Of a stretch of DNA of 8,162 nucleotides, positions 1 through 8,162 are shown in pieces. The first letter of the stretch is position 1. Each line of letters starts with the position of its first letter. A program made the position numbers and the translations under genes. The notes below the pieces were generated by a model that was given only the letters and a program-made list of their open reading frames with translations, was not told the origin of the DNA and did no database searches. This stretch comes from a virus. Its lineage: Duplodnaviria; Heunggongvirae; Uroviricota; Caudoviricetes. The DNA lies in IMG/VR virus record IMGVR_UViG_2671180770_000010, positions 1 to 8,162 of that record; one strand, given 5' to 3'.

Positions 1-40
1 GTTGACGAAGACGATTCAGATTTTCTTCTTTTGTTGCCAT
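1..40 (-). CDS. 5' end of a lambda gpFI-like DNA-packaging protein gene (partial, runs off the window)
   Basis: Minus-strand ATG at 38-40 with GGAGG at 46-50 upstream. The 13 translated residues MATKEENLNRLRQ resemble the lambda FI N-terminus as I recall it. It lies directly downstream of a capsid gene and terminator, as in lambda E-FI. Only 13 codons are visible. Confidence 0.4.
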   Translation of the reverse strand, partial: MATKEENLNRLRQ

Positions 41-54
41 CTCAGCCTCCTGTG

Positions 55-83
55 AAAAAAGACACGGGGGCATTTCGCCCCCG
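55..83 (-). terminator. Rho-independent terminator after the truncated capsid gene
   Basis: On the minus strand, stem CGGGGGC, loop GAAAT, stem GCCCCCG, then TGTC and a T6 run. It begins 8 nt after the stop at 92-94. Confidence 0.6.
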
Positions 84-91
84 CTCACGGA

Positions 92-883
92 TTATTTCAC
101 CTGCACCACCACAAACTCATCCGGATCCGGCAGCACCATCAGCGGTGCGGACTGCGTCATGGTGAATTCACGGGCCGGATCGCCCACAGTCAGCCAGTGT
201 TTCGGATAACGGGAAGAGGCCACCACACCTTCGGACAACGCCTGCGCATCCTGAATGGCACCATAGCAACGAATGCCCTCTGCTGCCGTATTCCCCAGGA
301 CCAGTGTGCCCACCGGCAGATAACGTTTTTCGGTACCGTCGTCTGCCACATAAGACGTTTTCGCCACCACAATGGCCAGATCACCGTAATACCCTTTGAA
401 AGACACCACCGCTCCCAGGTCTTTCACTGCCGTTTCGAGTTGTGAATTTGAGCCGCGACGGGTATCCAGTTTTTCGCGGAACAGCTTAAAGCCATTCAGC
501 AGACGCCAGACCGTACCGTCCATAATGGCAATATTTACAAGACCGCTGGCCTGATCGCAGTAAAGGTCAATATCATGCGTCGGATCAAACGTATCACGGT
601 CCTGCTCAGACCATTTTTTACCGTCGGCCTGCTCAATGTTATTTCCTTCAGAGCGTCCGAAATCCACCTCGACCGTGTCAAACTGTTCCCCTTCCATGGT
701 GTATTTGCCATACAGCACGGCATTCACCGCCTGCATTTCTTCCACCTGGACAATGGCGTGCTCTTCCTGTTTGAGGTTATCGGTAATGATACGCAGACGA
801 CGGTAGGCCGGGTCGTTCAGCTGAGCCGGATCTTCACCAGGAAGGCGCTCAACCGCCTGCTGGTAATTAAATTCGTGTTTGGG
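92..883 (-). pseudogene. N-terminally truncated lambda gpE-family major capsid protein (roughly residues 80-341 retained)
   Basis: The translation carries gpE-like blocks (VEEMQAV, KLDTRRGSNS.LETAVKDLG, GDPAREFTM.QSAPLM, PDEFV.VQ). Hand translation upstream of the listed start shows the homology continuing to 883 (PKHEFNYQQAVERLPGEDPAQLNDPAYRRLRII). It then ends at an in-frame TAA at 884-886 with no start codon. Candidate internal starts are GTG 743-745 and ATG 734-736. Confidence 0.8.
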
Positions 884-1019
884 TTACATGAGTCAAATAT
901 GAAAGGATGTGAATGATTTGATTACGTTTTAGCTATAGAATTGAAATGGAAAATCCTTGAATGCAATACAACGTGCAATACATGGATGAAAACCATCACT
1001 CATTTAACAAGAGGAATCT

Positions 1020-1925
1020 ATGCGCTCACCCAACAGAATGCATGAACGCTCAACATTTTATAAGTATATGTCGTTGAATACCGCGAAGATTGTTCTTGAT
1101 TCATGCAGCCTTAGATGGAGTTCTCCGGTCCTATTTAATGACCCTTTTGATGTTCCAAGAGAAGTTATGCCTGGTATTAACGAAATTAATATTGGCAAAG
1201 CTTTAGCCCGCAAGTTAATAGCGGAGTTGATTACCCCCAGAGAAGACATACAAAATTTAAATCCTAGAATTAGAACAATGCTAAGTGATTTCCAAAAGTC
1301 ATTTCCTTTAGGCATACCCGCAGGATTAATTGAAAGATTTCAAGAAATGGTAAACATTCCACCAGTTGGGATTGGCGCTCCTGCGGCAATACAAGAAATG
1401 AAAGATGTCTGGCGAGGAATGCTTAATAACAGAAGGATTTTGTGTTTATCTGAGAGCCCTATAATCACTCCTATGTGGAATCACTATGCCGATAAATATA
1501 AAGGTATAGTTATCGAATTTGATTGTGTAGACTTTCTGGATAGCGCTTGGTTAATAGCCAAACCTATGAAATACACAGATGAAATGCCTCTAACTCACAC
1601 TGCTGAAGGGATGGCCGAGTTGCTTTTCATGCCAGACAATAAGTCAATTGAATATATCAATAATGAGATAATATTCATAAAAACAGAAGAATGGGCATAT
1701 GAAAGAGAGTGGAGAATTTCAACCTACGCTAGGCCAAATAGCACTGGTCAATATAGCGACTTAAAATTTCACCCTTTTGAGTTAAAATCTGTAATACTTG
1801 GTCCTCTTTTTGATGCCAGCGAGTTCGATGAAGTCGCATCACTAGTTAAGATGTATCCAAGAGCGAAATTATTTAAAAGTTCATTTGGGAACGACAGAAA
1901 AATATCCATAGTACCACTACCTTAA
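1020..1925 (+). CDS. Hypothetical 301-aa protein, DUF2971-like (tentative family assignment); candidate accessory or anti-phage cargo gene
   Basis: Long ORF with AGAGGA 5 nt before the ATG. It is strongly AT-rich compared with its flanks and is convergent with the neighbouring phage genes. Motifs YKY..L......L......SP.LFNDPFD, LCLSE and W.HYAD.YKG..IEFD match my recollection of DUF2971. Confidence 0.7.
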   Translation: MRSPNRMHERSTFYKYMSLNTAKIVLDSCSLRWSSPVLFNDPFDVPREVMPGINEINIGKALARKLIAELITPREDIQNLNPRIRTMLSDFQKSFPLGIPAGLIERFQEMVNIPPVGIGAPAAIQEMKDVWRGMLNNRRILCLSESPIITPMWNHYADKYKGIVIEFDCVDFLDSAWLIAKPMKYTDEMPLTHTAEGMAELLFMPDNKSIEYINNEIIFIKTEEWAYEREWRISTYARPNSTGQYSDLKFHPFELKSVILGPLFDASEFDEVASLVKMYPRAKLFKSSFGNDRKISIVPLP

Positions 1926-1956
1926 AAGGTCAAATGCTTTTGACAAATAAAATCTA

Positions 1957-1980
1957 TCGCCAGTTTTACTGGCGACTTTT
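1957..1980 (+). terminator. Rho-independent terminator downstream of the 301-aa gene
   Basis: Stem TCGCCAGT (1957-1964), loop TTT, stem ACTGGCGA (1968-1975), then CTTTT. It sits between the two convergent genes. Confidence 0.5.
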
Positions 1981-2031
1981 AAGCAACAAAGAACCACCTA
2001 AGCACTCTTCCTACCTATGGTTTCATTTGTT

Positions 2032-2583
2032 TTAACTTCGCTGATTATCCTTGATATACCTTTCAGCCATATCTGGAATGTTATCTGAGATCTGGTAAGC
2101 TCGAATAAATGCTTTACTGACCTCCATCTTAATGAAGTCCTGATACCGTTTTTCCATGCCAGGAAACTGTCGACAGATCGCAAGTGGAAGACTATCAATG
2201 ATTGCTCCAACTTCCCCAGTTAATTTCGACAAGGCATAAGTCGCAAATGCAGTGTCAATTACCTCACCTGTTTCGCTGGCATTCTTCAGTTCCTGTGCGT
2301 CGGCCTGCGCACGCGTAAGTCGATGGCGTTCATACTCAATAGTCCCTGGCAGGAGATCTGCCTCGCTGGCCTGCCGCAGTTCTTCAACCTCCCGGCGCAG
2401 CTTTTCGTTCTCAATTTCAGCATCCCTTTCGGCATACCATTTTATGACGGCGGCAGAGTCATAAAGCACCTCATTACCCTTGCCACCGCCTCGCAGAACG
2501 GGCATTCCCTGCTCCTGCCAGTTCTGAATGGTACGGATACTCGCACCGAAAATGTCAGCCAGCTGCTTTTTGTTGGCTTCCAT
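2032..2583 (-). CDS. Terminase small subunit, lambda Nu1 family (mosaic, divergent C-terminal part)
   Basis: The first ~103 residues are almost identical to lambda Nu1 as recalled (MEANKKQLADIFGASIRTIQNWQEQGMPVLRGGGKGNEVLYDSAAVIKWYAERDAEIENEKLRREVEELRQASEADL...). The remainder is recognisably related but divergent and AT-rich. A lambda-like cos lies immediately upstream and the length (183 aa) matches Nu1 (181 aa). Confidence 0.9.
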   Translation of the reverse strand: MEANKKQLADIFGASIRTIQNWQEQGMPVLRGGGKGNEVLYDSAAVIKWYAERDAEIENEKLRREVEELRQASEADLLPGTIEYERHRLTRAQADAQELKNASETGEVIDTAFATYALSKLTGEVGAIIDSLPLAICRQFPGMEKRYQDFIKMEVSKAFIRAYQISDNIPDMAERYIKDNQRS

Positions 2584-2610
2584 TGTTCATTCCACGGACA
2601 AAACCAGAGA

Positions 2611-2800
2611 AAGGAAACGACAGAGGCCAAAAAGCCTGTTTTTAGCACCTGTCGTTTCCTTTCTTTTTAGGGGGTGTTTTTAATAAAAACATTAAGTTAC
2701 GGCGAAGAAGAACGGAAACGCCTTAAACAGGAAAATTTTCACAAATAGCGAAAAACTGCGCGCCTGACGCCCCGTAACGTTCTGGATCACCGGAAAGGAC
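2611..2800 (-). other. Lambda-type cos site: conserved cosB (about 2611-2758), variant cosN (2761-2772), cosQ-like flank (about 2779-2800)
   Basis: The minus-strand sequence GTTACG-GGGCGTCAGGCG-CGCAGTTTTTCGCTATTTGTGAAAATTTTCCTGTTTAAGGCGTTTCCGTTCTTCTTCG...GAAAGGAAACGACAGGTGCT...CTGTCGTTTCCTTTC...GTGGAATGAACAATG parallels the lambda cos/Nu1 leader as I recall it. The 12-nt cosN equivalent is GGGCGTCAGGCG against lambda GGGCGGCGACCT. Confidence 0.7.
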
Positions 2801-2828
2801 CCGCCAGCCAGAGCGGGCCCTAATTTCA

Positions 2829-3212
2829 TCAACCAATCAGCTTATAGCGACCATCCCGTGCATTGCGGCGTACACGCTCAATCTTGAGGCATAGCGCCGC
2901 ATCTGGCTTTTTTGGGACAGGTACGCGGCAATATTCAGAAGCGCGAGGAATATTATTTATCCAGTCGATCACTTCACTTAAATACCAGGCCTTACGCCCT
3001 TCCGTAACCTGCACACGCTCCGGGAACTCTCCACTAGCCTCAAGGTTTAGCAGTGTACGACGACTCAGGGTTGTAATTTCCATCACCTGATTCATATCAA
3101 CAAGGCGCTCGCTTAAACACATTTTGTCAGCGATAGCTTTTAATTCCTCTACAGCTGGATTCGGGTACATCATTTCGGCAATTGGCTTAAGGTCATTGTA
3201 ATCATTCTGCAT
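2829..3212 (-). CDS. AlpA/Xis-like HTH DNA-binding protein (127 aa), last gene of the capsid operon and adjacent to cos
   Basis: The C-terminal segment EITTLSRRTLLNLEASGEFPERVQVTEGRKAWYLSEVIDWI fits the AlpA-family MerR-like HTH pattern. The start ATG at 3210-3212 follows AGGGGGA, just after the upstream gene's TAA. Confidence 0.6.
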   Translation of the reverse strand: MQNDYNDLKPIAEMMYPNPAVEELKAIADKMCLSERLVDMNQVMEITTLSRRTLLNLEASGEFPERVQVTEGRKAWYLSEVIDWINNIPRASEYCRVPVPKKPDAALCLKIERVRRNARDGRYKLIG

Positions 3213-3223
3213 TGTATCCCCCT

Positions 3224-3565
3224 TTACACACGAGCCAGCGGCTGAACAGAAATACCTGAGCCAACAAACGCTGCAACCTTTACTGACAGTTCTTTAACAG
3301 ACTCAGGCCAGTTCAGAGCATCAACATTTAAGACACCTGTCTTATAGACCTGAGCCTGTGTTTTTTTCGCGGTGTCGATTTGTACAGCGGAAACATAAAC
3401 CGCTTTACCTACGCTCGAACCATCCCATACTACCAGTGCACCTGTTGCATCTTCCTGCATCAGTGGCGTAAATGCAGGAATTACCCCTTTATTAGCTGAA
3501 AATATCCCCAGCGTAGTCACCAGTGCTTCAGTGCCAGCCATGAGTTCAGTGTAATGAGTAGCCAT
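3224..3565 (-). CDS. Head decoration protein, lambda gpD family
   Basis: 113 aa against lambda D at 110 aa. Shared blocks include TPLMQEDATGALVVWDG (lambda TPLMLDTSSRKLVAWDG), YKTGVLNVDALNWPES (lambda YKSGTFRYEDVLWPEA) and AFVGSGISVQ (lambda AFAGTAISIV). A GGGGGAG ribosome-binding site sits between the upstream stop and the ATG. Confidence 0.8.
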   Translation of the reverse strand: MATHYTELMAGTEALVTTLGIFSANKGVIPAFTPLMQEDATGALVVWDGSSVGKAVYVSAVQIDTAKKTQAQVYKTGVLNVDALNWPESVKELSVKVAAFVGSGISVQPLARV

Positions 3566-3574
3566 TGCTCCCCC

Positions 3575-4615
3575 TTAGCCAATGCGAACGGTAACAAAAC
3601 GATTGATGCGGGCCGGTATTGGCTGTGGTGCTGAATGTGTCTGCACATATTCAATAGCCGGATCACCAGGCACAATATAGTTTTTCGGTGCAAGTTCGGC
3701 TTTAGTCAGCCCCATTCGGATTAGCTCCGGATCCTGAATACCGCCATAGGCGACAATCCCCTGAAGAGCCGTATTGCCAAGCACCATCAAATCAGGATCA
3801 AGGAAATGTTTTTCTGTTCCGTCCTCGTCGGTATAACGCCCGCTGTAAACAACAATCGCAACATCGCCCATATACCCTTTAAAACTCACCGAATCACCAA
3901 GGTCTTTAAGGGCCGTTTCCAGTTCGGAATTAGAACCACGACGGGTATCCAGAGCCTCTTTTATAGCTCTGAATGAACGGTATTTCTTCCATACATTACC
4001 GCCCATAATGATAATATTAGTGACGCCCTCACTAAATTCTGTGTAGCTCTCAATATCATCATTTGGATCAAAAGTTTCTTTATCCTTACCTGACCACTCA
4101 GCACCGCCAGACTGAGTGATGATATTTTGTGGTTTAATATTCCAGTCCAGCTCATAACGTTCAATACCATCGCCCTCAATGATATTTTTCCCCGTTGTGA
4201 TTGCCTGAACAGCAAGCCATTCAATACGTGCACGAATAGCTTTAGCTTGATTTACAATCGCCTGTTTAACTTTAATATTACGCGCCCCAAAAGCATTGTA
4301 TTGCTCAGGTGATACACCAGCAGGGCGCACAGCTAACTTATTTGGATCAATGCTGCTTTTCGGCTTCATATAGCCTGGACGAATTGTTTTTGATTCGTAC
4401 CCTTCGTCACGTGAAACTTTACTACCCACCATAGGAGAACAAAACGCTGCAATTGGGATATTTGGATCGTCGATTGTATCAAGAATAATATCGCGCGATT
4501 CAAACATTACCGAGCGAGTAAAAAACAAACTGGTAAACAACGCATTTAGTTGTTTTTGTACATCTACAGCATTAACCACCTGTACAAGCTGAGTAGGCGA
4601 ATATAAATCAACCAT
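3575..4615 (-). CDS. Major capsid protein, lambda gpE family (complete, 346 aa)
   Basis: gpE-like blocks run the full length (LYSPTQL..., RPGYMKPK, ITQSGGAEWS, DTRRGSNSELETALKDLG, GDPA.E). I moved the start to the ATG at 4613-4615, which has AAGAGG 6 nt upstream. The 404-aa ORF in the track is an upstream over-extension. Confidence 0.85.
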   Translation of the reverse strand: MVDLYSPTQLVQVVNAVDVQKQLNALFTSLFFTRSVMFESRDIILDTIDDPNIPIAAFCSPMVGSKVSRDEGYESKTIRPGYMKPKSSIDPNKLAVRPAGVSPEQYNAFGARNIKVKQAIVNQAKAIRARIEWLAVQAITTGKNIIEGDGIERYELDWNIKPQNIITQSGGAEWSGKDKETFDPNDDIESYTEFSEGVTNIIIMGGNVWKKYRSFRAIKEALDTRRGSNSELETALKDLGDSVSFKGYMGDVAIVVYSGRYTDEDGTEKHFLDPDLMVLGNTALQGIVAYGGIQDPELIRMGLTKAELAPKNYIVPGDPAIEYVQTHSAPQPIPARINRFVTVRIG

Positions 4616-4789
4616 ACGCATCCTCTTTGCATTCATTAAAAATAATTGTGGATATATGCTATCACCGATATTTGTCATGCGAACACATGCAACCGAGTGC
4701 AATGTTGTATAAAGTTTTGGGGTGACAACTTCAGTGCGGACAATTAGTGTTAATATCTTCACTCCCTTTGGTCGGGATTTATGTAGCAT

Positions 4790-4821
4790 GCCGGAAAATT
4801 TATTTTTTCCGGCCTTTTTTT
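4790..4821 (+). terminator. Plus-strand intrinsic-terminator-like hairpin between the SSB and capsid genes
   Basis: Stem GCCGGAAAA (4790-4798), loop TTTATT, stem TTTTCCGGC (4805-4813), then C and a T7 run. The T-run follows the hairpin only on the plus strand, which is antisense to the surrounding genes. Confidence 0.4.
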
Positions 4822-4832
4822 ATTGGCAATAT

Positions 4833-5282
4833 TTAAAACGGGATATCATCTCCCCATTGCTCATTATCTCCCACTGGTGGCTGGCTTCCTTGCTGATCTG
4901 CCTGTTGTTTTGCTCTGTTCAGTGCGTCAGTAGCCTGCCCCTGTTGGCCTTTTTTGCCGCCCGGTCGCACCGATCGCGCACTGATTACGCTGTCTGCGAT
5001 AACCTGCCAGCCCTGCCGCGTTTCGCCGTTCTGTCCAGTCCACTGGCTCATCTGCATGTTACCCGCCACGCTTAGGAGTTCGCCTTTGTGATGCTTTGCC
5101 AGCGCGTCGGCTTGTCTGCCAAACGCCAGGACAGATAACCACATCGTCGCCTGACCGTCATCCGACTGACTGCAGGGCAGTGATACCGCCATACGCGCCA
5201 GCGTCATGGGGGTGCCCTTGCTGGTCTGTTTTGTCTGCGGGTCGTCCACCAACCGCCCGTAAACTGATATTTGCGCCGTCAT
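4833..5282 (-). CDS. Single-stranded DNA-binding protein (SSB family), 149 aa
   Basis: OB-fold-like N-terminal region (ISVYGRLVDDPQ...TKQTSKGTPMT..., WLSVLAFGRQAD), a Gly/Gln-rich linker and the canonical acidic tail DDIPF. Its ATG overlaps the upstream gene's TGA as ATGA at 5279-5282. Confidence 0.8.
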   Translation of the reverse strand: MTAQISVYGRLVDDPQTKQTSKGTPMTLARMAVSLPCSQSDDGQATMWLSVLAFGRQADALAKHHKGELLSVAGNMQMSQWTGQNGETRQGWQVIADSVISARSVRPGGKKGQQGQATDALNRAKQQADQQGSQPPVGDNEQWGDDIPF

Positions 5283-5524
5283 GCTGCCTGCTCTCCGGAC
5301 TTAATATTGATTGTTGTCACTTCCTCCGCTTCAGCAATCTCCCGTTCGGTCAGAGTGGCAAAATTTGCAGCCGCCGTTGTCATGAATGCGCTAATCAGTT
5401 CGGGATGTGCTTTCGCGTATCCTTCCCCGGCGTTGCGGTCGATGATTTTTATCGACACCCTTAACCAGTGTTCCGTCAAATCAAGGGCGTGCGATTGTGA
5501 TTTTTTTGTGTGCTTCGCTGTCAT
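5279..5524 (-). CDS. Hypothetical 81-aa protein, translationally coupled to the SSB gene
   Basis: ORF sits directly downstream of the iteron region and overlaps the SSB start by ATGA. I do not recognise a family. Confidence 0.5.
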   Translation of the reverse strand: MTAKHTKKSQSHALDLTEHWLRVSIKIIDRNAGEGYAKAHPELISAFMTTAAANFATLTEREIAEAEEVTTINIKSGEQAA

Positions 5525-5570
5525 AGGCTTTATCTCACAGCAGTAAATTAAAATTTTTGCGTTTTAACCC

Positions 5571-5798
5571 TTCACCTGTTCACCTTTTGATATTTTCTCT
5601 TTTAATTCATAATGTTAATGGGTGAACAGTTTCACAAAAACTATTCACCAACTGTTCACCACTGTTCACCCTTGAAGCTCAATAAACAATCAAAAAGGTG
5701 AACAGTGAATAGTTTGGTGAACAGTTCATAAATAACTGTTCACCCTATAATATACTGATATAAAAGATATTTATGACAGGGTGAACAGTGGTGAACAG
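5571..5798. repeat. Iteron array (P4 ori/crr-type TGTTCACC repeats); putative replication origin
   Basis: About ten copies of CTGTTCACC or its complement GGTGAACAG in both orientations (5576-5584, 5621-5629, 5652-5660, 5662-5670, 5697-5705, 5716-5724, 5736-5744, 5780-5788, 5790-5798, plus degenerate copies). An AT-rich stretch lies at 5745-5779. The array is adjacent to the primase gene. Confidence 0.75.
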
Positions 5799-5811
5799 TT
5801 ATTCCATAAGT

Positions 5812-7632
5812 TTAATTTTTGCTATCGTCATTAGTGACCGATACACATGATGGCATCCAGTCTTCTGATTCCTCCGTCAGTGTCACGTTTGAACGCAAAC
5901 CGTGCTTCGTTTTCCGTTTCATATACTCCCTGCCATATTCCGCCATTGCCCCCGGCATATCTTTACCGAAGCGCGTCAGTGTTACAGGTTTACCAAACCC
6001 ATGTGCCCTCATATAAGCCAGATAGGCATGATAGAGATACCTGCGTGGGCTGAATGGCACAATTTCAGCATTACCCACTAACAGGCCATCACACATTACC
6101 GATGCCATGAGATAGCCGCAGAAGTCCACCAGCGAATCCCCCTCTCGCTTTATCGCCAGTGCTTCTTCAGATTTCTGCTGCTCATATAACAGGCGTCTGG
6201 CTTCGTCCTGATCAGCAAACCGTGTAAGCAGATGACGAATCACTACCGCCAGCTCACCTTCTATTTTTTCCGCCAGCATCGAATCGCGTTCGTTCTCCGG
6301 TACAACTTCCGAAAAATTGAATATCACCCGACGACGTGAGATCCCCCCGCTGCGGTCACTGAATGACATGGCGTTATTGTTAACCACCAGCACTACTGCC
6401 GGAATACGCGTTGAATAGGGGGCTTTGTGTTTCGGGTCAATTGCCACCTTGTCACCGCCTGTAATGGCCTTAATCCCTGCCCCATCACCAGCGTAGCGGG
6501 TCATATCTGGCATGATAATCAGCGAAAAGCCAACCACTAACGCACGTTCCCTTGCATCTTCCAGCGCCTTCATGCTTGCTGATACTGTATTAGCCTTACC
6601 CGCCAGCATGGTGCAAATCTCCGCCATCACGCTTTTACCACTTCCCCCCGGCCCTGTTACCTCAATGAATAACTGCCAGTCGTACCGGTTCGCCAGCACC
6701 ATGAATAATGCCGCCAGTACGCGATCTGCCTTGCGGTCATTCTCAGCCACCGAACGGCGCAACCACTTCCAGAAATTCGGCGCATGTGTTGCCAGCGTTT
6801 CCCCCTCTGCTGGTGGGCTGAAAGGTAATTCACTGGCAATTAACAACCAGTCGTTTTTGTTATGCTCCCGAAAATTACCTGTTCTGGTATCAAATACCCC
6901 GTTACTGAATCCAATCAGGTTACGGGCTGTATTCCCCATTACAGGCAAACTTAACTTCATGGTATCTACCGCCGATTTAATGGCGTTCTGCGAATAGCTG
7001 ATCTCCGCATCAATGAAAATCTGCGCCATAGCACGCTGTAACTCTTTATCCTGAACCGGCTCCCATACAACGCCGTTGTAATGATGAACGGTGTCAGAGT
7101 CGGCATTGATTGCCAGTTCGCCGCCGTAATGTGCCAGGAGAACTTCACCGCGCTGGCTGGCCCCCATCTGATTCAACGCCAAAGATGAAGCACGCTCGTC
7201 ATTTTTGCGCTCTGCCTTCTTCACTGGCAGTTCAATCACCAGACTTTCCCCATGCTCCGCTTCAGCTTTTAGGCCGACAAGGCGCGGAGTCCAGTCTTCA
7301 GGCTCTCGATCAACAAAGCTACGGTAACAACGTGCTTCCTTTACGCCTGCAATAGCAAGTAATGTCGCAACCTTCGTCAGACTTTTCTCTGCAATCTTTC
7401 CGGCACGATAAACACGCACATAATGACGGCCTTCATCGATAATTTGCATATCATCCAGGTTTTCCAGTTGTTCCGTACCCAGAATTACTGGTGGTGTATC
7501 ATCTGCTGCAATATGCTTACCTGCCCATTCATTCCATTCTTTTGCATGGCTCCAGGCATCACTGCCAGCAAAAATGATGACTTCCGTCATTTTGTCGCGC
7601 GGTTGGTATTTTAAGTTCGGAGCACGTTTCAT
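5812..7632 (-). CDS. P4 alpha-like replication protein (phage/plasmid primase-helicase family; pri-rep)
   Basis: 606-aa ORF with the Walker A motif GPGGSGKS (EVTGPGGSGKSV) in its central region. Its size, architecture and the adjacent TGTTCACC iterons are typical of P4-family and PICI primase/helicases. The ATG overlaps the upstream ORF stop as ATGA at 7629-7632. Confidence 0.85.
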   Translation of the reverse strand: MKRAPNLKYQPRDKMTEVIIFAGSDAWSHAKEWNEWAGKHIAADDTPPVILGTEQLENLDDMQIIDEGRHYVRVYRAGKIAEKSLTKVATLLAIAGVKEARCYRSFVDREPEDWTPRLVGLKAEAEHGESLVIELPVKKAERKNDERASSLALNQMGASQRGEVLLAHYGGELAINADSDTVHHYNGVVWEPVQDKELQRAMAQIFIDAEISYSQNAIKSAVDTMKLSLPVMGNTARNLIGFSNGVFDTRTGNFREHNKNDWLLIASELPFSPPAEGETLATHAPNFWKWLRRSVAENDRKADRVLAALFMVLANRYDWQLFIEVTGPGGSGKSVMAEICTMLAGKANTVSASMKALEDARERALVVGFSLIIMPDMTRYAGDGAGIKAITGGDKVAIDPKHKAPYSTRIPAVVLVVNNNAMSFSDRSGGISRRRVIFNFSEVVPENERDSMLAEKIEGELAVVIRHLLTRFADQDEARRLLYEQQKSEEALAIKREGDSLVDFCGYLMASVMCDGLLVGNAEIVPFSPRRYLYHAYLAYMRAHGFGKPVTLTRFGKDMPGAMAEYGREYMKRKTKHGLRSNVTLTEESEDWMPSCVSVTNDDSKN

Positions 7633-7916
7633 TTGTTACCTCCGGCAACTAACATTGCCCGAATTTTGCGGATATAGCCTGCGGCACGCCTCTGATTATC
7701 TGTCTTGCAATTTTTTACCAGAATGAAATCTCTTTCGAACTGCTGACGCGGCATAACACATTCAAAATCATAACCATCACGCAAATAAGAGACACGACGA
7801 TCATCAACCGAAATAATCTTTACCCGATAGCCATAGCTGTCTTTGAAAATATCCCCAAGGCTGATTTTTGAATGAGTTTGACCGCTGGCAATAAAGCCAG
7901 AAAATTTATTTTTCAT
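7629..7916 (-). CDS. Hypothetical 95-aa protein, translationally coupled to the primase gene
   Basis: ORF has GGAG 8 nt upstream of the ATG at 7914-7916 and an ATGA stop/start overlap with the primase gene. No family recognised. Confidence 0.5.
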   Translation of the reverse strand: MKNKFSGFIASGQTHSKISLGDIFKDSYGYRVKIISVDDRRVSYLRDGYDFECVMPRQQFERDFILVKNCKTDNQRRAAGYIRKIRAMLVAGGNK

Positions 7917-8162
7917 TTTTTATTCTCCGGTATAGCTCTGATCGTGTATTTTTATAGCTTCATCCAGCTCTTTGATGACAGGATCAAGTAACGTAATTAA
8001 CGCTCCAGCTAAATTAGCATCCCGTTCATCGTGTTCCGCATTTGTTGTCCCATCAAGCCAGGTTGGGCTTTGTTGAATAAATAAGATTTCGTGCGAACGA
8101 CCCTGTAGCTGGCTGGATTTTCAGGCAATACGCACGCTTTCTGGCATCCCAGCCTTTGTCAT

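Follow-up and report, generated by a model that had tools for sequence, protein, structure and literature searches.

A single-stranded DNA-binding protein gene beside the predicted replication origin of a Gram-negative PICI: family, conservation and a probable accessory role in replication

The window, i.e. the whole stretch of DNA that was analysed (8,162 nucleotides, positions 1 to 8,162 of the IMG/VR virus record IMGVR_UViG_2671180770_000010), runs from a partial hypothetical gene and a DUF4222 gene through attR to a fragment of a prophage capsid gene E. The gene considered here, ssb (4833..5282, minus strand), has an ATG start and a stop codon at 4833-4835 and codes for a protein of 149 aa, which in the ORF list and its translation begins with MTAQISVYGRL and ends with NEQWGDDIPF. 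Upstream of ssb, with all genes on the minus strand, lie the DUF4222 gene (7629..7916; Pfam E=3.4e-22), which overlaps the start of pri, then pri itself (5812..7632), a 287-bp AT-rich gap (5525..5811) and a gene for a conserved hypothetical protein of 81 aa, orf81 (5279..5524). With the gap taken as the origin, the order is DUF4222, pri, iteron origin, orf81 and ssb, and ssb is the second gene past the origin. The DUF4222 gene occupies the same position upstream of pri in loci L002, L009, L010 and L014 and is situated farther upstream in L013.

On its other side ssb is separated from the island's own capsid gene (3575-4615) by a 217-bp spacer with a G+C-rich hairpin (4790..4813); the T-run of this hairpin is on the plus strand, antisense to the genes of the element. 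A scan for promoters and terminators around ssb gave sites no more numerous than in shuffled sequence, and an Rfam scan of the window gave no RNA family at E <=0.1.

The product of pri is a 606-aa initiator/helicase matching the Pfam families D5_N, DUF5906 (the SF3 helicase core) and Pox_D5; TIGR01613 stayed below its cut-off. Residues 498-594 of Pri match the origin-binding domain of the phage P4 alpha protein (PDB 1ka8) with an E-value of 1.9e-24. For residues 1-160 no Pfam family was matched and no primase domain could be recognised; the corresponding region of Pri from a Pluralibacter island contains a Zn-ribbon and a Toprim primase domain.

In the gap between pri and orf81 (33% GC) we observed 10 copies of an iteron, GGTGAACAGT, located at 5575-5799 in both orientations with at most one mismatch. 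The whole window contains 11 matches to GGTGAACAGT, 10 of them in the gap, and the chance expectation for the window is 0.39. The origin of the GN-PICI EcCICFT073 was mapped downstream of pri by Fillol-Salom et al. 2018 (PMC6092414), and the gap has the position and organisation of GN-PICI origins as established there. By position and organisation we predict that 5525..5811 is the replication origin of the element.

The element is a Gram-negative PICI whose type, helper-embedded 11capE, is known from the work of Nielsen et al. 2023 (PMC10111431); as in the configuration reported there, it sits within capsid gene E of a lambdoid prophage. The island measures ∼10.5 kb in two near-identical loci (L001 and L002), where it interrupts the major capsid gene of a lambda-like prophage; the resulting two pseudogene halves lie inside a lambda-like late operon. 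In the window, the prophage capsid gene E is represented by its C-terminal fragment (92 to ∼880, minus strand). The gene order in the two loci is int, AlpA/HTH, further genes, Icd-like, hypothetical, DUF4222, pri, orf81, ssb, capsid, decoration, HTH, (Nu1-type terS) and cargo, a layout that follows the GN-PICI scheme of a unidirectional island of ∼10-11 kb with int, alpA, (Bro zone), pri, ori and late genes. The cargo slot is variable: a PDC-S31-like DUF2971 gene is found in the window and a TIR-domain gene in L001.

Among the genes of the island is a Nu1-type terS of its own; a lambda-like cos region is also present, and there is no recombinase gene. A search for lambda cosN (GGGCGGCGACCT) gave no meaningful match. 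A cosB-like region upstream of terS was obvious by eye. Helper-dependent induction, replication and packaging were demonstrated for EcCICFT073 and in part for 11capE (PMC6092414, PMC10111431).

The product of ssb matched Pfam PF00436 (SSB) at residues 4-99 (E=1.7e-16; 60.6 bits with a cut-off of 26), the NCBIfam family TIGR00621 ‘ssb’ (70 bits vs a cut-off of 53.95), in an alignment reaching the final residue of the protein, and PHROG 44 ‘single strand DNA binding protein’ (E=1.1e-37). The solved structures nearest to it by sequence were all SSBs, e.g. Thermotoga 1z9f with E=3.7e-12; the E. coli SSB structure 1eqq was matched by phmmer with E=2.9e-4 only. In an AlphaFold2 monomer model, built on an alignment of 28 relatives, residues 1-103 form an OB fold (pLDDT 77-92 per 10-residue block) and residues 104-149 are disordered, with pLDDT <50 from residue 104. 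The top 50 Foldseek matches of this model in the PDB were all bacterial SSBs (E ∼1e-9; TM 0.75-0.83 by target length). The earlier note had read the ORF at 4833-5282 as an SSB with a canonical DDIPF tail; the ORF with its GDDIPF end is indeed there, and Pfam, TIGR00621, PHROG 44, AlphaFold2 and Foldseek agree, well beyond what chance would give, that its product is an SSB. We assign the product to the bacterial SSB family on the basis of profile matches, predicted fold, aromatic residues and tip. The annotation as such is already known, as RefSeq gives the name ‘single-stranded DNA-binding protein’ to proteins 99.3% identical to the satellite SSB, and the PICI literature files SSB, grouped with Primase and DUF5906, under the ‘Replication’ zone (PMC10111431).

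The satellite SSB has the general architecture of E. coli SSB (P0AGE0; 1eqq/1eyg): an OB fold is followed by a disordered linker and an acidic amphipathic tip ending with DDIPF. The predicted OB-fold ssDNA-binding domain (4974..5282, minus strand; residues 1-103) was delimited by AlphaFold2, Foldseek and alignments; its identity to E. coli SSB is 23% over 98 aligned residues, with an E. coli sequence that we take to be UniProt P0AGE0. The initial description of a short, divergent core was right as to divergence but not as to length, since the match covers positions 3-101 of the 104 in the Pfam profile. What makes the satellite SSB as a whole short (149 aa vs 178 aa in E. coli) is a reduced L23 loop together with a reduced linker.

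Three of the four ssDNA-stacking aromatics of E. coli SSB (W40, W54, F60 and W88) are kept: the positions of W54, F60 and W88 are taken in the satellite protein by W48, F54 and W81, none of which varies among 28 relatives. In the same alignment W40 corresponds to C37, while H55, a residue important for tetramer stability in E. coli SSB, corresponds to L49.

The linker (4863..4973, minus strand; residues 104-140) is ∼37 aa long, vs roughly 55-60 aa in E. coli SSB as read off the alignment, and is predicted to be disordered except for one helix. This low-confidence helix at residues 117-129 (nt 4896-4934; AlphaFold2/DSSP) coincides with a conserved motif, GQQGQATDALNRAKQQ, that we observed in 79 of the 112 full-length close relatives, including proteins from Salmonella, Pluralibacter, Citrobacter and Leclercia. 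The motif is missing from the EcCICFT073-type SSB. A conserved motif with a predicted helix is unusual for an SSB linker; the linker of E. coli SSB, in contrast, is a Gly/Gln/Pro-rich region of low complexity.

The C-terminal tip, EQWGDDIPF (4836..4862, minus strand), is the counterpart of the E. coli SSB-Ct (DFDDDIPF), the docking site for partner proteins. The statement that a mobile element encodes an SSB keeping this docking tip is upheld by the island context together with the sequence of the tip. Among 28 relatives D145 and F149 are invariant and P148 is conserved in at least 90%; three residues before D145 there is usually an aromatic residue (W, Y or F), as is the F in E. coli DFDDDIPF. 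The proteins end with IPF in 100 of the 112 full-length relatives and with [DE]x[ILV][PSG]F in 107 of them. The commonest endings among 120 close relatives were GDNIPF (43), GDDIPF (15), GDGIPF (15), SDDIPF (8) and EDEIPF (8). Thus, the DDIPF tail is present in this protein but is not the consensus of the family, in which the conserved part is [aromatic]-x-D-x-I-P-F. In most of the family the tip is less acidic (GDNIPF, GDGIPF), and such proteins may thus bind host partners more or less tightly than host SSB does. Partners binding to the SSB C-terminus include DnaG and the Pol III chi subunit (PMC6783573), and RecG is named among the recombination and repair proteins docking at the tip (PMC10164576).

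The upstream neighbour, orf81, belongs to PHROG 1231 (function unknown). That ssb is joined to an uncharacterised 81-aa ORF, as the earlier note pointed out, can be read in the sequence as a 4-nt ATGA overlap, in which the ATG of ssb (5282-5280) overlaps the TGA of orf81 (5281-5279); a GGAG is located ∼10 nt upstream. We considered using the ATGA at the ssb start as a statistic for coupling and discarded it: it is trivially present in 75 of 75 loci, with the protein beginning with Met-Thr (ATG ACN). Among the IMG/VR loci with sufficient upstream DNA (75 from the best 80 of 483), orf81 adjoins ssb in 73.

We found 159 homologues of the orf81 protein, all unnamed and mostly from Escherichia, Shigella or Citrobacter. 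Pfam, NCBIfam and PADLOC searches with it gave no match; its AlphaFold2 model consists of two long helices forming a hairpin (pLDDT 66), for which Foldseek found nothing in the PDB below E=6. Searched with an HMM, orf81 was present only in E. coli-type islands and absent from Salmonella, Pluralibacter, Leclercia and Citrobacter islands. Given that these islands do carry ssb, orf81 is not an obligate partner of the SSB and is not integral to its function.

We then consider how widely the gene occurs and how it is conserved. A megablast search with the 901-bp orf81-ssb region gave matches in 1,544 of 5,426 complete E. coli genomes, with identity up to 99.6%; in 365 of the 1,544 genomes the match spanned at least 80% of the length. 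The matched genomes already annotate the gene as ‘single-stranded DNA-binding protein’. In IMG/VR, where an alignment was used as the query, 483 loci with a relative of the SSB were found, while a scan of genome contigs with the single protein gave 4 loci. Synteny was counted for the best 80 of the 483 loci, of which 75 had at least 2.5 kb of upstream DNA; in 74 of these 75 a Pri homologue ends within 2.5 kb upstream of ssb on the same strand.

The order of pri, iteron gap, (small ORF) and ssb recurs in EcCICFT073, where the SSB (136 aa) is 68% identical to the one in the window and the upstream ORF, 83% identical to orf81, has the same 4-nt overlap with ssb. The same order was observed in a capsid-forming PICI with an HK97-type capsid, protease, portal, HNH and TerS/TerL, in Salmonella islands with a DUF927-type Pri and in the Pluralibacter island with its Toprim-D5 Pri; in a Citrobacter island a non-homologous small ORF replaces orf81 before ssb. 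Leclercia islands also bear ssb and were compared for ssb and orf81. The Salmonella PICIs have, in addition, a tail-less SSB paralogue of 114 aa (L010:10117-10461).

Across the compared islands the SSBs are 54-77% identical, while the Pri proteins are 39-48% identical or have another architecture, and the iterons, located in the same gap downstream of pri, differ by island type. The SSB thus occurs independently of the type of Pri and origin. In locus L044 the SSB is 98% identical to that of the window, yet the Pri is only 48% identical and the iterons are of the AGGTAGACA type. A near-identical SSB beside a different Pri and different iterons shows that the orf81-ssb cassette is exchanged independently of the initiator/origin pair. 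This independence argues for a generic role of the SSB at the replisome rather than an initiator-specific one.

For the whole ssb gene, dN/dS against six relatives was 0.13-0.18, with dS up to saturating values; the C-terminal part gave 0.13-0.39 in those comparisons in which dS was unsaturated. Such values indicate that the OB domain and the C-terminal part are both under purifying selection, and hundreds of clusters have an intact reading frame.

As to ancestry, recent capture of a host ssb is ruled out by the 23% identity of the OB domain to E. coli SSB. A phage origin is unsupported by GenBank phages: none of 50,697 phage records contains a relative with more than 34% identity. Plasmids seldom carry members of the SSB family (61 of 72,556 records, some being apparently chromosomes), and the niche of the family is chromosomal satellites. 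At the level of 50% clusters the family grades into a wide set of SSBs of 130-150 aa, many of which end with F-D-D-x-[IL]-P-F.

Among described elements, the nearest likenesses are with other PICIs, from which the window differs in nothing fundamental. The EcCICFT073 SSB (WP_000126698.1) belongs to the same family and has the same place after pri, ori and a small ORF; it is, however, the 136-aa form without GQQGQATDALNRAKQQ, whereas the window encodes the 149-aa form with GQQGQATDALNRAKQQ. The 11capE islands, in which the SSB is 99.3% identical, share the insertion in the prophage capsid gene E; 11capE is described as having no terS (PMC10111431), whereas the island in the window has the Nu1-type terS and the DUF2971 cargo gene.

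More distant likenesses extend to other mobile elements and to bacterial paralogues. Conjugative plasmids (F ssb, in the leading region) and temperate phages (PHROG 44) likewise encode SSBs of their own. The F-plasmid SSB keeps a host-type tip and adds to the supply of host SSB when the plasmid's own DNA is processed; SSBs of F-type plasmids are closely related to host SSB, and their expression follows ssDNA entry in conjugation. SsbB proteins of B. subtilis and S. aureus are among the best structural matches (5yyu, 3vdy) and have a similarly small size. SsbB paralogues, which act in competence, have no acidic tip; the satellite SSB, unlike SsbB, keeps it.

We consider it probable that the satellite SSB is an accessory of the PICI replication module, coating ssDNA at the origin and at the forks and recruiting host partners via its tip. 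Of the suggestions in the earlier note, the one that the protein may help the element to replicate is best backed by the context, i.e. by the location of ssb near the iteron origin and Pri and by the synteny, which recurs in all PICI types that we compared. When the helper is induced, the unidirectional operon would be transcribed through pri, the origin, orf81 and ssb, presumably in this phase of the cycle. The P4-alpha-like C-terminal domain of Pri would bind the GGTGAACAGT iterons, and the SF3 helicase would unwind the AT-rich origin. The satellite SSB, by analogy with other bacterial SSBs probably a homotetramer, would coat the exposed strands via its OB fold (W48, F54 and W81). Its tip may dock host SSB-interacting proteins, as is to be expected because the SSB C-terminus has established roles in binding such partners as DnaG and chi, and the foreign SF3 helicase would then become coupled to the host replisome. 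Extra SSB capacity while helper and satellite replicate together could be a further benefit.

We found no functional study of any PICI SSB in the literature. In a published assay, nothing more than the pri-ori fragment of EcCICFT073 was needed to maintain a ts plasmid in DH5alpha (PMC6092414). Since pri and ori are sufficient there, the satellite SSB is not strictly required, and at the copy number of a plasmid, at least, host SSB is enough; this is why we describe the protein as an accessory and not as an essential component of the initiator. Synthetic derivatives of EcCICFT073 in which c1498-c1501 are replaced (PMC10530653, PMC10460865) were considered as evidence on dispensability and set aside: by position, the deletion does not reach ssb, which precedes the capsid gene c1499 by three genes.

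Several other explanations of the conserved ssb deserve attention. The plasmid experiment with pri-ori alone could also be taken to mean that ssb is a decaying or non-functional passenger, an idea that has next to no chance of being correct in view of the low dN/dS, the frame kept intact in hundreds of clusters and the invariance of key tip residues and aromatics. The competition with host SSB for its partners that the earlier note had offered as a second option received no positive evidence. In this scenario the satellite SSB would titrate the partners of host SSB, or displace it or mix with it, starving the helper in favour of the satellite. The tip does mimic the host docking motif, one cannot assume that so divergent an OB core could stand in for that of host SSB, and PICIs are known to interfere with their helpers (PMC6092414). 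Yet when EcCICFT073 genes located after the ori were expressed singly, only c1503 (rppA) reduced lambda plaque formation (PMC6739421); the ssb homologue is the second gene past the ori and so was presumably one of the clones with no effect, and the experiment argues against strong interference. Furthermore, lambda relies on host SSB, global competition would harm replication of the satellite too, and ssb belongs to the replication zone, not to the interference or late zone. We regard interference as unlikely.

As the main function of the protein, a role in recombination is, in our estimate, just as improbable. Here the SSB would mainly act in a late stage, recombination-dependent or rolling-circle, by protecting ssDNA tails and loading recombinases of the host or the helper, helping to form the concatemers that cos-type GN-PICIs package. 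Packaging of GN-PICIs as phage-length concatemers of ∼45 kb (PMC10111431), the lambda-like cos region and Nu1-type terS of the island, and the docking of proteins such as RecG at SSB tips (PMC10164576) are in line with it; the island, however, brings no recombinase gene, ssb is tightly linked to pri and ori rather than to packaging genes, and the same SSB is found in capsid-forming PICIs with a different packaging type (HNH/TerS/TerL). A contribution to concatemers overlaps with the replication-accessory reading, is compatible with it and is inseparable from it here. By analogy with phage SSBs, which are sensed by Retron-Eco8, AbpAB and Hna (PMC13402713, PMC10732053 and PMC13381803), one could also imagine the satellite SSB as a decoy or shield against host sensors of SSB or ssDNA, or as a trigger aborting infection by a non-helper phage, and these satellites do have a variable slot for defence cargo. 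But ssb is located in the conserved replication zone and not in this slot, its conservation pattern is of the housekeeping type, and no PADLOC model matches the SSB or orf81; an interplay with defence is therefore very unlikely.

The replication-accessory reading could have a more specific form, which we put forward tentatively as doubtful, if somewhat less so than interference or recombination. The SSB might be a dedicated adaptor, with its tip recruiting host DnaG and chi and offsetting the fact that Pri has no recognisable primase domain, and with the linker helix serving as a second docking site; priming and the loading of Pol III at the fork of the satellite would in that case rely on the tip. 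It is possible, with the same reservation, that this helix (GQQGQATDALxRAxQQ, in the 79 of 112 relatives) docks Pri, orf81 or a protein of the helper phage and so marks the ssDNA of the satellite off from that of host or helper. If the adaptor role were true, the less acidic tips (DNIPF, DGIPF) would tune the choice of host partners, and the finding would be of moderate interest to specialists in replication and in satellites.

In itself, ssb is a routine component of a described satellite family, and its wider significance is small. The question it raises is why a satellite of ∼10 kb that can replicate from pri-ori alone keeps a highly conserved SSB interchangeable between initiators, and whether such a protein, through its tip or its conserved linker helix, favours the satellite at the host replisome. 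An answer would help in the engineering of PICI-based delivery vehicles, in which genes of the ssb region are now kept or removed largely empirically.

The island is bounded on the attR side of the insertion by a C-terminal fragment of the helper prophage major capsid gene E (window 92 to about 880, minus strand), the product of which shares no more than 44-45% identity with the capsid protein encoded by the island itself. At this end of the island lies a DUF2971 gene (1020-1925, plus strand), for which PADLOC gave a match to PDC-S31, a candidate defence family, with an E-value of 2.5e-32. In L001, an E. coli island otherwise near-identical to that of the window, the DUF2971 gene is replaced in the same slot by a TIR-domain gene (L001:8389-9531). 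Judging from the gene content of these two islands, this position looks like a variable slot for defence cargo.

The next gene, a Nu1-type terS (2032-2583, minus strand), encodes a Nu1 homologue (Pfam E-value 8e-82), and upstream of it we recognized by eye a lambda-like cos region (about 2590-2800, minus strand). Again by eye, the sequence upstream of terS (TTTTCGCTATTTGTGAAAATTTTCC...GAAAGGAAACGACAGGTGCT) is closely similar to lambda cosB, while the cosN-like bases of the window are unlike those of lambda, GGGCGGCGACCT. The island Nu1 homologue is only 57% identical to Nu1/NohA of the helper prophage, as calculated over the part of the gene retrieved in L001. In the published description of 11capE (PMC10111431) terS is reported missing from that element; the island of the window differs from it in having a Nu1 homologue of its own.

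The capsid gene of the island appears as a mechanical ORF of 404 aa (3575-4789, minus strand), whereas the RefSeq start, an ATG at 4615, gives a protein of 346 aa. In the longer ORF, similarity to the Pfam capsid E family starts only at residue 70, which is consistent with the shorter version. Between the capsid gene and ssb there is an AT-rich spacer of 217 bp (4616-4832), in place of which the studied CFT073 island EcCICFT073 carries perC and a small ORF. Inside the spacer we observed a G+C-rich hairpin (4790-4813) with a T-run on the plus strand, antisense to every gene of the island.

The linker of the SSB contains a conserved motif, GQQGQATDALxRAxQQ (residues 117-129; 4896-4934, minus strand), predicted with low confidence to form a helix. 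The motif is present in 79 of 112 close relatives from several genera; in SSBs of the EcCICFT073 type, by contrast, it is deleted. In three Salmonella enterica PICIs the SSB with the tip is followed, 3 kb further downstream, by another SSB paralogue, 114 aa long (L010:10117-10461; also in L011 and L012). This paralogue shares 48% identity with the OB domain of the window SSB, has lost the equivalent of W81 and is missing both the linker and the acidic tip.

The pri gene (5812-7632, minus strand), annotated as 'primase', encodes an SF3 helicase core followed by a C-terminal domain homologous to the origin-binding domain of P4 alpha (PDB 1ka8, E-value 1.9e-24). No Pfam family was matched by the first 160 residues and, unlike Pri of the Pluralibacter PICI, the protein is without the Zn-ribbon and Toprim primase domains. 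Among the IMG/VR loci (L016-L095) we found one, L044, with an orf81-ssb cassette nearly identical to that of the window (98% for SSB); despite this, the Pri proteins of the two are only 48% identical and the iterons differ (AGGTAGACA in L044 versus GGTGAACAG in the window). As judged by this sequence comparison, the replication module has a mosaic structure, and a recombination boundary lies close to the origin.
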